From the IMG/VR virus record IMGVR_UViG_2874945390_000002, positions 1 to 40,023 of that record: DNA of 40,023 nt. One strand, written 5' to 3'. Positions 3,001 to 9,000 of the stretch are shown piece by piece. The DNA is from a virus (taxonomy: Duplodnaviria; Heunggongvirae; Uroviricota; Caudoviricetes). Numbering within the stretch: the first letter of the stretch is position 1; the number at the start of each line of letters is the position of its first letter. Made by a program: the position numbers.

Positions 3001-6000
3001 CAACAACGCGGTTATGCTTTTGCAATGTCAGGCGGGAACTGGTGATCACGATGTTCGCTACGGCGCCATAGTCCTGGTATTGGATTTTCATTTACATGTT
3101 CCCCATAACGGTATCGCTCATGTCGTTAACCATGCTCTGCCAGATTTCTTTGCCGCTTTGCGTCAGCTCGTTTCCACGAACGCATTTGCTTAACAGCTGA
3201 ATACCAACGGCTTCCCATTGGGGGTAATTTTCTTTGATAGCCTTCAGAGCATAACCATCGATTAAGTCCCTGATGCCTTTAACCCCACCGATGATGTTTG
3301 GATGGATCAACTTTGTAGGCCACACCGATGTGATAGCCGATGGTTGAGGTAGCCTGAGTTTAACGGACACTCCTTCCTGAAATAGAATGGCATCAGAAGG
3401 AGCTAATAATGAGCAGAAAAACCCAACGTTACTCTAAAGAGTTCAAAGCCGAAGCTGTCAGAACGGTTCTTGAAAATCAACTTTCGATCAGTGAAGGCGC
3501 TTCCCGATTATCCCTTCCTGAAGGCACTTTAGGACAATGGGTTACCGCCGCCAGAAAAGGGCTCGGTACTCCTGGTTCCCGCACGGTGGCTGAACTGGAA
3601 TCTGAAATTCTGCAACTGCGTAAGGCGTTAAATGAAGCTCGCCTTGAGCGAGATATATTAAAAAAAGCAACAGCGTATTTTGCACAGGAGTCGCTGAAAA
3701 ATACGCGTTAATCGAACAATGGCGACAACAATTTCCCATTGAAGCGATGTGTCAGGTATTTGGTGTATCCAGGAGCGGTTATTACAACTGGGTACAGCAT
3801 GAACCCTCAGACAGAAAACAAAGTGATGAGCGGCTAAAACTGGAGATTAAGGTGGCACATATCCGCACTCGCGAAACATATGGAACCCGGCGGCTCCAGA
3901 CGGAGCTGGCAGAGAATGGCATCATCGTTGGTCGTGACCGACTGGCACGTCTTCGTAAGGAGCTAAGGCTACGCTGTAAGCAGAAACGCAAGTTCAGAGC
4001 GACTACGAACCCGAACCACAATCTGCCAGTTGCGCCAAATCTGCTGAACCAGACGTTCGCTCCTACAGCACCAAATCAGGTCTGGGTGGCGGACCTGACG
4101 TATGTTGCCACACAGGAGGGATGGTTGTACCTCGCTGGCATCAAAGATGTTTATACGTGCGAAATTGTCGGCTACGCCATGGGAGAGCGCATGACAAAAG
4201 AGCTGACAGGTAAAGCCCTGTTTATGGCGCTCAGGAGCCAGCGCCCACCTGCCGGGCTAATCCACCACTCTGATCGAGGTTCACAGTACTGCGCATACGA
4301 TTACCGGGTCATACAGGAGCAGTTTGGTCTGAAAACATCAATGTCGCGTAAAGGTAACAGTTACGACAACGCTCCGATGGAAAGCTTCTGGGGAACGCTG
4401 AAAAATGAGAGCCTGAGCCACTATCGTTTTAATAACCGGGATGAAGCCATCTCAGTAATACGGGAATACATTGAGATTTTCTACAATCGTCAGCGTCGTC
4501 ACTCTCGTCTGGGGAATATCTCCCCGGCAGCCTTCAGGGAAAAATATCATCAGATGGCTGCTTAAAAAAAGAACAAATGGTAGTGTCCGCTATTGCCAGT
4601 ACACCTCAGGTTGTACCGTCACTCATCTGGAAACTGAACGGTTCATCGTAGGTCTTCATTTGTTTGAAGGTGGGGAAGATATAAACTTCAGTATTCCAGC
4701 CAGTCCAGTAGCGACCAACACCGACCACCTCACCGACGCCTTTGTCGTCGCCCAGTTTATTTACCTTGATGCCAACATTACCTGGTTCAACGCGATCGCA
4801 ACCGACAAGGCCAATGGTCGGCAGAACAATGGCTAAAGCAAAAATAATTTTTTTCATCTTTTATCCTTAGTGAAAGAAAGCCCCTTGTAAATGGCATAAA
4901 TGCAGGGCGGGGTCAGAAACGCCAGTGCAAAGCCAGAAATAACTGCTATCGTATCCTTCATGGATATAAGGAACGGAACAAGTAATCTGTAAATGCATGC
5001 GATAATTGCCAGTAAAATTACTATTCTGAAATACAGTCTCATTGGTTTGTTGCATCCCGATATTTTTAACCGACTGACAGCGCAATAAAGAGAATAATGA
5101 TTTCTGTTAGTGTCAGTACTGTAGCAAGGATTAAAAACAGTTTTACTCTGTTTAATTCACGGTTGCTTTTCATATAAACGGTTAGTAAAAAACGAAAGAA
5201 TTATATTCTTCTTAATGTTTAATGTGTCACTGGTGCTTCTGGTATACCATGAGTATTCAGATCGTGAATCATTTCATCCAGAAGGAGTTCAAGCCCTTCG
5301 CGCCCCATAGCAGAGACAATGAAGCCATTATCAGGATCTGCGATGAGCATTTTTTGATAGAGAAACAGAACTCGCCCCATGCCTTCATCTTCGCCATATT
5401 TTTCAATAAATCCCCATTCGACATGGTTTTGCAGGGCAATGCGAAGTGGCCCCGGGTATATACTTATACAACCATGCTTTCCCTTATAAATAACTGCGTG
5501 ATCTGTGGTTCCGTTATCGTTAGGGATATCAATGGTACCGTTCTTGTTTTCCTCTTCACTGATAAACGTCGCCACATACAGCCAGCGCCATTGAGCAACC
5601 TTCATATCGACTGAAAATCTTCCCAGGAATCCGGCATCATCGGCTTCTGCAATATGAGGTAGCCTGAGTTTAACGGACACTCCTTCCTGAAATAGAATGG
5701 CATCAGAAGGAGCTAATAATGAGCAGAAAAACCCAACGTTACTCTAAAGAGTTCAAAGCCGAAGCTGTCAGAACGGTTCTTGAAAATCAACTTTCGATCA
5801 GTGAAGGCGCTTCCCGATTATCCCTTCCTGAAGGCACTTTAGGACAATGGGTTACCGCCGCCAGAAAAGGGCTCGGTACTCCTGGTTCCCGCACGGTGGC
5901 TGAACTGGAATCTGAAATTCTGCAACTGCGTAAGGCGTTAAATGAAGCTCGCCTTGAGCGAGATATATTAAAAAAAGCAACAGCGTATTTTGCACAGGAG

Positions 6001-9000
6001 TCGCTGAAAAATACGCGTTAGTCGAACAATGGCGACAACAATTCCCTGTTGAAGCGATGTGTCAGGTATTTGGTGTATCCAGGAGCGGTTATTACAACTG
6101 GGTACAGCATGAACCCTCAGACAGAAAACAAAGTGATGAGCGGCTAAAACTGGAGATTAAGGTGGCACATATCCGCACTCGCGAAACATATGGAACCCGG
6201 CGGCTCCAGACGGAGCTGGCAGAGAATGGCATCATCGTTGGTCGTGACCGACTGGCACGTCTTCGTAAGGAGCTAAGGCTACGCTGTAAGCAGAAACGCA
6301 AGTTCAGAGCGACTACGAACCCGAACCACAATCTGCCAGTTGCGCCAAATCTGCTGAACCAGACGTTCGCTCCTACAGCACCAAATCAGGTCTGGGTGGC
6401 GGACCTGACGTATGTTGCCACACAGGAGGGATGGTTGTACCTCGCTGGCATCAAAGATGTTTATACGTGCGAAATTGTCGGCTACGCCATGGGAGAGCGC
6501 ATGACAAAAGAGCTGACAGGTAAAGCCCTGTTTATGGCGCTCAGGAGCCAGCGCCCACCTGCCGGGCTAATCCACCACTCTGATCGAGGTTCACAGTACT
6601 GCGCATACGATTACCGGGTCATACAGGAGCAGTTTGGTCTGAAAACATCAATGTCGCGTAAAGGTAACTGTTACGACAACGCTCCGATGGAAAGCTTCTG
6701 GGGAACGCTGAAAAATGAGAGCCTGAGCCACTATCGTTTTAATAACCGGGATGAAGCCATCTCAGTAATACGGGAATACATTGAGATTTTCTACAATCGT
6801 CAGCGTCGTCACTCTCGTCTGGGGAATATCTCCCCGGCAGCCTTCAGGGAAAAATATCATCAGATGGCTGCTTAAAAAAAGAACAAATGGTAGTGTCCGC
6901 TATTGCCAGTACACCTCAATACATCGCATGATTCTTAAACCGTGCCAGCATGGATTGTCGTACTCACCATCATTAAGACGCTGTACGGCCTCAACATAAT
7001 CAATGGTTGTATTGTCAATTTTTATGCCATGAGCTGTTGCTTCTGGTTTGAATTCAAAATTGTTCATAATGTTTGTTCCTTTGCTGGTGGAATAATCGTG
7101 TAACCCGCTCTTTTTGCCATCCACAGAAATGTATCCATGCAACCAACGAATTCATTATCCAACAGATGTTTTGAGTAAATTACTTTCCCATTTTCAATGG
7201 TTAGCAACACTCTTACTTTTTCGTGTATTACCCCCCCTGCTCAGGCTCATTCTGCATTTTATTTCGTGCTGATGTCTCCATTATTTTATCTCCCATAAGC
7301 CTTGCGCAAATACAGGTTGGCTATATGAAGATAAGAATCTCCATGTTGTGCAATGAGGCAGGCAGTTTTATACGATGCCTTATGTTTCAGGAAGGTCATA
7401 ACATAATCTCCTGCGAATAAAGGTTGCAACAATCCCCGGCGATAAAACCGTAATAAACATTCAGGGAATATTTATTGTGATTGCGCTAATTCTTTTTCGG
7501 CAGCAGCTTTTGCATATTCACATGCAAAATTTAGAATTTCGCTGCCAAGTACTTTTGTTTCGTGATTACTGGACATATGTAATACCTGTGTTGCATGCAA
7601 TAAATGATAAACATTTACCGCAAATGAATCAGGCTCCAGACAAATGCCTTCGTAATTATCTTGCTGTGAGGTTGTTTCTGTCATTGCTCCTGAAGTGCAT
7701 GCGAGCCTGTTTTTGACAATTCTCTTTCCTCTAATCACTATATCGGCAACATCTATTGCCTTTACAACCTCCGGGAGAAGTTCCTGGTTTGTATAATCAA
7801 AGTTATCAACATGGAGAACAGTTATGTTTTCGAACTTTTTCATGGCTTCCTCAGCTGACTTATATGTTCTGCTATATAGCGAGTCTCAGAAGTGTTTTCA
7901 TATTGAGACTGTTTCCGCAATGATTGATAAAAATGTTCGCATGTACCTTGAGGGGCGAAGCGGCGATTATGTCACCATTGGTATTGGTTCTTCTGTAGAA
8001 GAGCTTCGCGAGATAAGGGGCAAACTTATTGAGATGCGTCATGGTGTTGCTGCTCCTCACTTTTTGGTTGCTCCGGAGGAGTAACCTCACCAGTTAATAG
8101 CCACATCGGATCGCAGCCAAGAATATTTGCCAGTGGGATAAGCATACTGATAGTTGGTTCATACTCTCCGCTCTCCCACTGGATGATAATTTCTTCATCG
8201 AGATCGAGCAGCCTGGCGAGTTCGGCGGTTGTTAAGCCGCAGGCTTCGCGTTGGGTGCGAATCCGATTCTGTGAGTTAATAGCTAAATTTTGTTTGCGCG
8301 AACGCGCTGATTTGGCAAATAAATCAACATTAGCGCCGGGAGCACTACTACCTGCAAGGGAATTCATAGTTGATGAGATGATGTCTTGTGCAACATCTAA
8401 GAGATTGATGACGTCATGGTTTGAAGCGGTACCACCTAATAGTGCCGCTTGAGCACAAATCAACAGAGAGTTTACGGAATAAGAGCCATGTTTATCATTT
8501 AACATTACATTCACCTCACTTGTTTTTACTCGGTGAGGTGAATGTAGCGTTATGCGTTATTTTTGACAATAGCAAAATGCTAATATTTGCTATTTTTTTT
8601 ATAGTGCGTTGTATTTATTATTCATTTTCGTTTTTGTCGATCGGCATTCTTGATGCTTTAACAGCCATTAGCTCATCAAGTAGTTTGTCAAAATTACGCT
8701 TCTTTTCAGATAACTCACTAATTATCCTGTCTTTTTCACTTTCAGGCATTTGTCTGAATAACTCAATAAGTCGAGTCTCTCTTTTAGTTAGTTGCTGTTC
8801 ATCAATAGTTGTCTCACCAGTCTTTTCCCTCATTTTAGCCAGATGCCATGGGGAATCCAGCAATGAGTGGGGGATGTCAAACCATCCTTCCGATAGGCTC
8901 AGTCGCCCCTCGAGTTTTCTAGCGAGAGCAGTTCCCATATTCCTGCGCTTAGTCATTATTTGGCTTATAAGTGATGGTGATATCTCACATTTTAACGCCA

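Follow-up and report, generated by a model that had tools for sequence, protein, structure and literature searches.

The window, that is, the whole 40,023-nucleotide stretch of DNA that was analyzed, carries a lambdoid, ipaH-carrying prophage of Shigella boydii (record CP026836.1, assembly GCA_002950135.1), and the locus described here belongs to the leftward early operon of this prophage. Two copies of the insertion sequence IS600 were found in the same orientation, one in a gene for an SPFH/Band-7 lipoprotein and the other in a phage gene for a 193-aa protein; a first description of this DNA (the sequence-only reading) had reported two such copies of 1264 bp each, and its coordinates were reproduced (Table 1). 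Other marks of decay in the prophage were an IS110-family element, two IS4-family copies and a truncated tail tip gene J, with ipaH at the prophage end. In the presence of several IS families in one prophage, a truncated tail gene and a terminal ipaH, and in gene fragments called as separate small "hypothetical proteins", the prophage resembled the IS-disrupted pseudogenes and ipaH prophage remnants of Shigella, and the locus was typical of these, with no difference observed.

Table 1. Positions of the features at the two IS600 insertion sites, numbered from the first nucleotide of the window.
Feature	Copy 1 or site 1	Copy 2 or site 2	Strand	Remarks
IS600	3345-4608	5655-6918	+	1264 bp; copy 1 in SPFH lipoprotein gene, 99.9% full-length identity to annotated IS600; copy 2 after codon 49 of 193-aa phage gene (phrog_1515)
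Left inverted repeat	3345-3371	5655-5681	+	19/27 positions match right repeat; TG...CA termini
Right inverted repeat	4582-4608	6892-6918		19/27 match to left repeat
Inward sigma-70-like promoter	3360-3388	5670-5698	+	TTAACG-17-TAGAAT
Outward GTG in left repeat	3368-3370	5678-5680	-	AGGAAGGA just before
orfA	3409-3711	5719-6021	+	100 aa, HTH_Tnp_1
Slippery run in orfA	3658-3668	5968-5978	+	TTAAAAAAAGC
orfB	3747-4565	6057-6875	+	rve/DDE integrase core
Target-site duplication	3342-3344, 4609-4611 (GGT)	5652-5654, 6919-6921 (ATA)		Left, right; flanks overlap 3 bp at L001 4001-4003 (copy 1) and 5044-5046 (copy 2)
Outward ORF, left end	3092-3370	5219-5680	-	Copy 1, 92 aa, triple chimera; copy 2, 153 aa, MSVKLRLPH then residues 50-193 of phrog_1515 protein
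SPFH remnant	3297-3344		-	Sole 48 bp of gene left downstream of copy 1
SPFH/Band-7 lipoprotein gene, N-terminal fragment	4606-4857		-	83 aa; stop inside copy 1 right end
phrog_1515 gene, N-terminal fragment		6900-7067	-	49 native codons + IEVYWQ from IS right end
Promoter-like hybrid site		6903-6932	+	-35 TTGCCA in right repeat, -10 CATGAT in flank; consensus match only

Both elements showed 99.8-99.9% identity over the 1264 bp to entries carrying the annotation "IS3-like element IS600 family transposase", and each began with TGAGGT and ended with ACCTCA. The orfB product contained rve, rve_2, rve_3 and HTH_21 domains and matched NF033516 transpos_IS3 with 334.6 bits; database proteins called IS600 ORF2 or IS600 family transposase have the same sequence as that of copy 2. 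When the sequence was read with a -1 shift at TTAAAAAAAGC, an open 385-aa OrfAB was obtained from both copies, and the use of such a shift would be expected from what is known of the IS3 family. The length, the TG...CA termini, the imperfect inverted repeats, the 3-bp duplication, and an HTH orfA joined by an A-run slippery site to a DDE/rve orfB in the -1 frame are all features of IS600 from Shigella and E. coli (IS3 family, IS3 group), with no difference of substance. Between the copies there were 5 base differences (IS positions 367, 390, 393, 394 and 1015); the KGN(C/S)YDNAP motif had Ser in copy 1 and Cys in copy 2, besides the four other base differences, and the copy 2 OrfB with Cys is a widely distributed database sequence.

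The left end of IS600 had been described as carrying an outward-reading ATG. The codon is actually GTG, the complement of CAC at 3368-3370 and 5678-5680, and an M written at an initiator GTG is only a convention of ORF callers. Both flank-spanning ORFs did start with MSVKLRLP, as had been noticed. Since one outward frame continues without a stop to the IS tip and includes an initiator-type codon, this shared prefix comes from the IS sequence itself and does not go beyond chance; any ORF finder would report an MSVKLRLP ORF running into whatever DNA adjoins the left end. The junction peptides expected from the outward ORFs are LPQPSAITSVWPTK at site 1 and LPHIAEADDAGFLGR at site 2.

The outward frame of copy 1 did not match the reading frame of the SPFH gene. 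The 92-aa ORF was made up, in order, of 8 IS codons, a junction codon, the 48-bp SPFH remnant read out of frame, and a tail in frame with a 112-aa gene (phrog_37628), of which it takes the C-terminal ~69 aa. The SPFH remnant meets unrelated prophage DNA at a TTT microhomology (3297-3299), and the ORF reaches 92 aa only because this rearrangement, separate from the insertion and 48 bp from it, supplied the 3' end of a different gene in a matching frame. A search of 5,426 complete E. coli genomes gave no IS-free junction of the SPFH gene with the 112-aa gene. The start assigned to the site 1 ORF differed between annotators, giving either 92 aa or 98 aa (MLFQEGVSVK...).

An uninterrupted E. coli prophage, L001, served as the reference for the intact alleles. 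The GGT and ATA duplications claimed for copies 1 and 2 were genuine, since each triplet is present once in the uninterrupted L001 allele, and the 1046-bp segment between the IS copies was, like both outer flanks, collinear with uninterrupted prophage alleles, which places the segment in its native position. Two IS600 elements would thus have transposed independently into neighboring genes, each producing its own 3-bp duplication and each landing antisense to the gene that it disrupted. A short segment enclosed by two near-identical direct copies could also suggest a composite transposon, with both elements and the 1046 bp between them arriving as one unit. We rejected this origin as hardly credible: each IS has a duplication of its own (GGT/GGT for copy 1, ATA/ATA for copy 2), no single duplication encloses the pair, whose outer flanks are GGT on the left and ATA on the right, and the collinear cargo is not foreign to the site. 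Truncation of the SPFH gene near the IS, with 48 bp remaining, would likewise be compatible with an adjacent deletion mediated by IS600, in which the element became fused to a downstream gene and the long outward ORF of copy 1 arose. Such a deletion begins exactly at the IS tip and eliminates the duplication, but at copy 1 the GGT duplication was retained and the 48 bp of SPFH sequence were intact, with the junction at the TTT microhomology instead; an adjacent deletion was therefore also rejected, as extremely unlikely.

The outward frame of copy 2 was in phase with the interrupted gene, as had been proposed, and removal of the IS and one ATA restored the 193-aa ORF. The chimera had been given as a 144-aa C-terminal fragment with an 8-aa IS-derived leader; the 144 native aa were recovered, but the non-native part amounted to 9 residues, with 8 pure-IS codons followed by one junction codon, CA/T, which places His where Cys49 had been. 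The prior for an in-phase fusion at copy 2 is 1 in 3. By chance the frame matches the 3' three-quarters of the 193-aa gene, and this gives the 153 aa. The NCBI pipeline carries the ORF as WP_284542112.1, a hypothetical protein of S. boydii.

Searches for a function of the 193-aa gene in Pfam, PADLOC and PDB sequences were all empty, and in PHROGs it was assigned to phrog_1515 only, listed as "unknown function". The AlphaFold model of the protein was a compact single domain (pLDDT 90, pTM 0.85), with no significant Foldseek match in PDB or BFVD, and the break introduced by the IS fell inside helix 40-55. Nearly invariant positions among the N-terminal 49 residues were E9, G14, I15, G18, I22, A27, D37 and C49. 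Judged from the model, the 153-aa fragment would lack the conserved quarter of a compact single domain and would start in mid-helix, which counts against function and lends it no support.

Translation of the copy 2 fragment had been made conditional on an outward promoter in the IS600 left end. A standard consensus scan found no minus-strand site there; the pattern expected of an outward promoter was a pair of sigma-70 hexamers (-35 and -10) 16-18 bp apart, directed outward and at most ~150 bp from the tip. A relaxed scan of the minus strand gave only two 9/12 matches, CTGACA-19-TAGAGT (5771-5741) and TTGTCC-19-GATAAT (5847-5817), which lie 87-193 bp from the IS tip and both have poor 19-bp spacers. 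Rfam at gathering threshold gave no RNA family in 3000-7300 and only two tRNAs, at 16192-16338. Terminator-like hairpins were also seen within the IS on the minus strand, in a count that is inflated by the two IS copies being counted twice.

Fuqua and Wagner estimated the share of IS3-family elements with outward promoters at about a quarter, and they reported that consensus-type scans overlook some promoters, with activity seen in 2 of 5 cases predicted to be negative (PMC12095673). Activation of neighboring genes by outward or hybrid promoters has been described for IS3-family members (PMC12095673) and for IS481 in Bordetella pertussis (PMC11774165). Here, as in those systems, an IS end abuts coding sequence, and an outward -35-like TTGCCA in the IS600 right repeat is paired at copy 2 with a -10-like hexamer in the flank, in a hybrid site reading outward to the right. 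In contrast, the proposal for this locus concerns the left end and the opposite strand, where there is no consensus-grade promoter, and it requires translation initiation within the IS in addition to transcription. A literature search returned nothing linking IS600 to an outward promoter, an antisense transcript or a fusion.

With regard to translation, AGGAAGGA is an SD-like purine-rich tract which abuts the GTG, so that its spacing is short and sub-optimal. The predicted anti-SD duplex of this tract (-6.5 kcal/mol) was weaker than that of IS600 orfA (-8.0 kcal/mol) and stronger than that of the disrupted gene at its native start (-5.6 kcal/mol). Initiation at the outward GTG is therefore physically plausible, and some translation would be possible if read-through transcripts exist. 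Both the GTG and the purine tract fall in the 17-bp spacer of the inward promoter, inside the left inverted repeat, and IS function alone therefore explains their presence. Translational coupling was considered and rejected, as none of the minus-strand ORFs within the IS terminates close to the GTG. Upstream of the copy 2 GTG, the nearest in-frame stop was at 5746-5744, with no start codon in between.

To place these two insertions among others, 43 non-redundant IS600 left-end junctions from the few genomes scanned were surveyed. Of 28 informative junctions, 7 had the GTG frame as their longest open frame in the outward direction, roughly the chance expectation, and the median GTG-ORF was ~22 aa. 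Among the other 41 junctions, only 5 had an ORF of at least 92 aa, so the two long ORFs here (92 and 153 aa) represent a mild coincidence. In-phase fusions were not enriched among other IS600 insertions, and the survey gave no sign of selection.

The possibility was then weighed that the left end of IS600 acts as an outward translation-initiation module, with the SD-like tract and GTG expressing an active 153-aa fragment and the 92-aa chimera from transcripts that arise at a weak antisense IS promoter or by read-through from the early-left promoter of the prophage. It would be consistent with the tract abutting the GTG and its predicted duplex energy, with the frame being in phase at copy 2, with long ORFs at both copies, with the annotation of the 153-aa ORF as a protein by the NCBI pipeline, with the two promoter-like minus-strand matches, and with the frequency of outward promoters in the IS3 family (PMC12095673). 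However, the start is a GTG with a tract placed too close to it, neither candidate promoter, each with a 19-bp spacer, passes the standard scan, and the inverted repeat together with the inward promoter of the IS already accounts for the nucleotides concerned. The fragment misses the conserved quarter of one predicted compact domain and begins in mid-helix, other IS600 junctions show no in-phase enrichment, and literature support is lacking. Read-through would, moreover, need to extend past the stop of the N-terminal fragment at 6900 and through 1.2 kb of antisense IS RNA that is not translated, which would favor Rho-dependent termination. Taken together, we consider expression of active products in this way improbable. 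Its broader form is less probable still, namely that the left repeat doubles as an outward ribosome-binding site and GTG which systematically yields MSVKLRLP-tagged C-terminal fragments from in-phase antisense insertions, here a 153-aa orphan-fold fragment made on early-left read-through and having some dominant-negative or new activity. Of the sequence-only reading, the structural part (left-end frame, shared prefix and copy 2 phase) was upheld, while the tagged truncated protein gained no support.

Very probably, then, the locus reflects an ipaH prophage in ordinary decay through IS insertion, in which the outward ORFs are by-products of gene disruption and represent pseudogene fragments, presumably neither expressed nor functional. 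The real consequence of the insertions is likely to be the loss of both genes, and polarity on the downstream early-left genes would form part of the same IS-driven decay. The locus adds another instance of prophage decay driven by IS elements in Shigella. Use of the outward GTG, if real, would allow IS600 to make N-terminally retagged fragments at many Shigella sites.

For annotation, the left-end junctions of IS600 feed MSVKLRLP "hypothetical proteins" into databases (e.g., WP_284542112.1 and WP_241559983.1), with a start choice that varies by pipeline, and unless their expression is demonstrated, such entries are best regarded as pseudogene fragments. The right end, which the earlier description did not mention, also yields outward chimeric ORFs on the plus strand, at 4471-4836 (121 aa) and 6781-6999 (72 aa), and these have 46 IS-derived residues in common.

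The outward reading frames at the left ends of the two IS600 copies of this lambdoid prophage (so classified by gene content) are very probably mechanical by-products of the element which have leaked into protein databases, and the feature is of an ordinary, already-known kind. The element matched plasmid-borne entries described as 'IS3-like element IS600 family transposase' over its full length at 99.8-99.9% identity, and copy-2 OrfB had exact matches among database proteins, under the name IS600 ORF2. Both copies have TG...CA termini and inverted repeats agreeing at 19/27 positions, and they differ from each other at five bases (IS positions 367, 390, 393, 394 and 1015). 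An HTH_Tnp_1 domain was found in orfA and rve and HTH_21 domains in orfB, for which the IS3-family model NF033516 gave 334.6 bits; with a -1 frameshift on TTAAAAAAAGC, a slippery run, both copies would have an open OrfAB of 385 aa.

The flanks of each IS600 were compared with uninterrupted alleles in the E. coli prophages L001 (NZ_OU342919) and L002 (NZ_CP027544). Left and right flanks of each copy fell on adjacent DNA of the uninterrupted allele and overlapped by exactly 3 bp (L001 4001-4003 and 5044-5046), indicating that GGT and ATA are true target-site duplications and bearing out the element length and duplications proposed in the sequence-only reading. On this comparison both copies are simple, independent insertions, and the genes inactivated by them in a decaying ipaH prophage are one for an SPFH lipoprotein and an early one of unknown function.

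Coordinates of the IS600 copies, their outward ORFs and surrounding prophage features
Feature	Position	Strand	Remarks
Integrase	75-1361	-	
92-aa ORF	3092..3370	-	begins MSVKLRLP
GGT duplication around copy 1	3342-3344 and 4609-4611		
IS600 copy 1	3345-4608	+	1264 bp
Inward sigma-70-like promoter	3360-3388 and 5670-5698		TTAACG-17-TAGAAT; both copies
153-aa ORF	5219..5680	-	begins MSVKLRLP
Split gene of copy 2	5219-5654 plus 6922-7067	-	phrog_1515
ATA duplication around copy 2	5652-5654 and 6919-6921		
IS600 copy 2	5655-6918	+	1264 bp
cI-like and HTH regulators	8026-9160	-	
Two tRNA genes	16192-16260 and 16265-16338	+	
IS110-family ('RNA-guided') transposase gene	16364-17560	-	directly after both tRNAs
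Two IS4-family copies	22584-24045 and 30431-31892	inverted orientation	1462 nt, 99% complementary
IpaH-family T3SS effector E3 ubiquitin ligase gene	38212-40023	-	NF046045, 563 bits; reaches window edge

Both flank-spanning ORFs share the prefix noted earlier from sequence alone, and the remaining leader codons (TCC GTT AAA CTC AGG CTA CCT CA) read as described, but the codon reported as ATG is in fact GTG, complementary to CAC on the + strand (3368-3370 and 5678-5680). The GTG frame is open upstream until a TAG at 5746-5744 and has no other start codon in that interval, so that an ORF caller picks the GTG as the first available start. At the right end, start codons in two outward frames gave ORFs 4471..4836 (+, 121 aa) and 6781..6999 (+, 72 aa), which have 46 IS-derived residues in common. 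Since both ends behave in the same way, flank-spanning ORFs are a general by-product of IS600.

Every exact IS600 left end was collected from one genome per species, giving 64 loci, most of which belonged to a single S. flexneri and a single Shigella-like 'E. coli'. Together with the window's two copies these reduced to 43 non-redundant junctions, at each of which the three outward frames were compared. There was no sign among the 43 that in-phase fusions are favoured. Where a unique longest open frame of at least 60 codons made a junction informative (n=28), the GTG frame was the longest in 7/28 and the other two frames in 7/28 and 14/28. The frame with 14/28 is +2 relative to GTG; this excess could reflect chance, residual near-duplicate loci (e.g. 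L032/L043, L041/L053) or a target-site preference. The GTG ORF had a median length of ~22 aa and reached at least 92 aa at 7/43 junctions, the window's two included; finding long ORFs at both window copies amounts to a mild coincidence (a simple frame argument gives roughly 0.05). One exact left end came from a 1380-bp contig of coverage 1.3 (L027, NZ_JBNGGG010000135.1) in the 'Streptomyces sp. UG1' assembly, most likely enterobacterial contamination.

When copy 2 and one ATA were taken out, a 193-aa ORF was restored which matched phrog_1515 (unknown function) end to end (E = 2e-91) and is uninterrupted at the equivalent position in related prophages (L001 4611-5192). The insertion follows codon 49 with the GTG frame in phase, confirming the 144-aa C-terminal fragment recognized previously; the 153-aa ORF consists of MSVKLRLP, a junction His and native residues 50-193. 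The N-terminal 49 codons persist in a 55-aa ORF (7067-6900, -) with its stop inside the IS600 right end. A single entry of the protein collection had exactly this 153-aa sequence, namely hypothetical protein WP_284542112.1 from Shigella boydii CP026836.1 (5.1 Mb). Homologues of the 193-aa protein were found only in Escherichia and Citrobacter prophages, where it is limited to early-left regions, and Pfam, PADLOC and PDB-sequence searches gave no match. Nearly invariant positions in the missing N-terminal segment include E9, G14, I15, G18, I22, A27, D37 and C49. A confident AlphaFold prediction for a full-length homologue of 95% identity (pLDDT 90.2, pTM 0.85) shows a single compact alpha/beta unit; structure searches of PDB and BFVD gave nothing significant (best E 0.05-0.1, TM <=0.27), which makes this an orphan fold. 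The break interrupts helix 40-55 midway, with the loss of three strands and one and a half helices, and a stable, active 153-aa fragment seems unlikely.

Copy 1 interrupts an SPFH/Band-7 lipoprotein gene (275 aa in L001, 3422-4249) that is out of phase with the GTG. To the left of the IS the SPFH sequence continues for just 48 bp (3297-3344), as far as a TTT microhomology (3297-3299). Beyond it comes the 3' portion of a 112-aa gene (phrog_37628), which is whole in another prophage type (L003 4293-4631), and this portion happens to share the frame of the GTG. The result is that the 92-aa ORF is a triple chimera, and in another S. boydii assembly it was called from a different start (98 aa, MLFQEGVSVK...). 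The rearrangement joins the first ~100 SPFH codons to the phrog_37628 3' part, and its IS-free form was found in 0/5,426 complete E. coli genomes. An IS-mediated adjacent deletion was ruled out by the retained GGT duplication.

Expression of the chimeric products from the left end, which the sequence-only reading had speculated on for copy 2, is unsupported; the description given in that reading was accurate save for the start codon. A purine tract, AGGAAGGA, does abut the GTG, with a predicted 16S rRNA 3' end duplex of -6.5 kcal/mol (IS600 orfA, -8.0; native start of the disrupted gene, -5.6), and ~26% of IS3-family elements are estimated to have outward promoters, detectable expression requiring a promoter within ~150 bp of the IS tip (Fuqua and Wagner, PMC12095673). 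However, the suggested search for outward promoter elements gave none on the minus strand in 3000-7300 by standard scan and, when relaxed, only two 9-of-12 matches (5771-5741 and 5847-5817), both with 19-bp spacers. Moreover, both the GTG and the tract are part of the left inverted repeat and of the 17-bp spacer in the element's own promoter, and so need no outward-coding explanation. Transcription from the prophage early promoter could reach the GTG only through ~1.2 kb of antisense IS sequence past the upstream fragment's stop, where Rho-dependent polarity would be expected. No ORF ending near the GTG was found for translational coupling, the literature searched contained nothing tying IS600 to outward transcription, and no Rfam family was found around the copies.

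At the other end of copy 2, a promoter-like hybrid site (6903-6932, +) combines a -35 TTGCCA in the IS600 right repeat with a -10 CATGAT in the flank (18-bp spacer), facing outward and antisense to early-left genes. TTGCCA lies 10 bp from the tip in every IS600; IS3-family elements form a circle junction, where it would face the -10-like TAGCCT of the left repeat.

Gene order suggests that the genes between the regulators and xis/int belong to the leftward early operon, in which both IS600 copies lie in antisense orientation. The ipaH gene at the window edge marks the prophage as an ipaH island. Within the 6.4 kb between the IS4-family copies lies a tail tip J gene of lambda type, shortened by truncation to 846 aa, and the tail module was possibly inverted or disrupted through these copies. 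A 20-nt inverted repeat (8500-8552, 90% complementary, 13-nt loop) between two leftward regulator genes could be an early-left operator or terminator.
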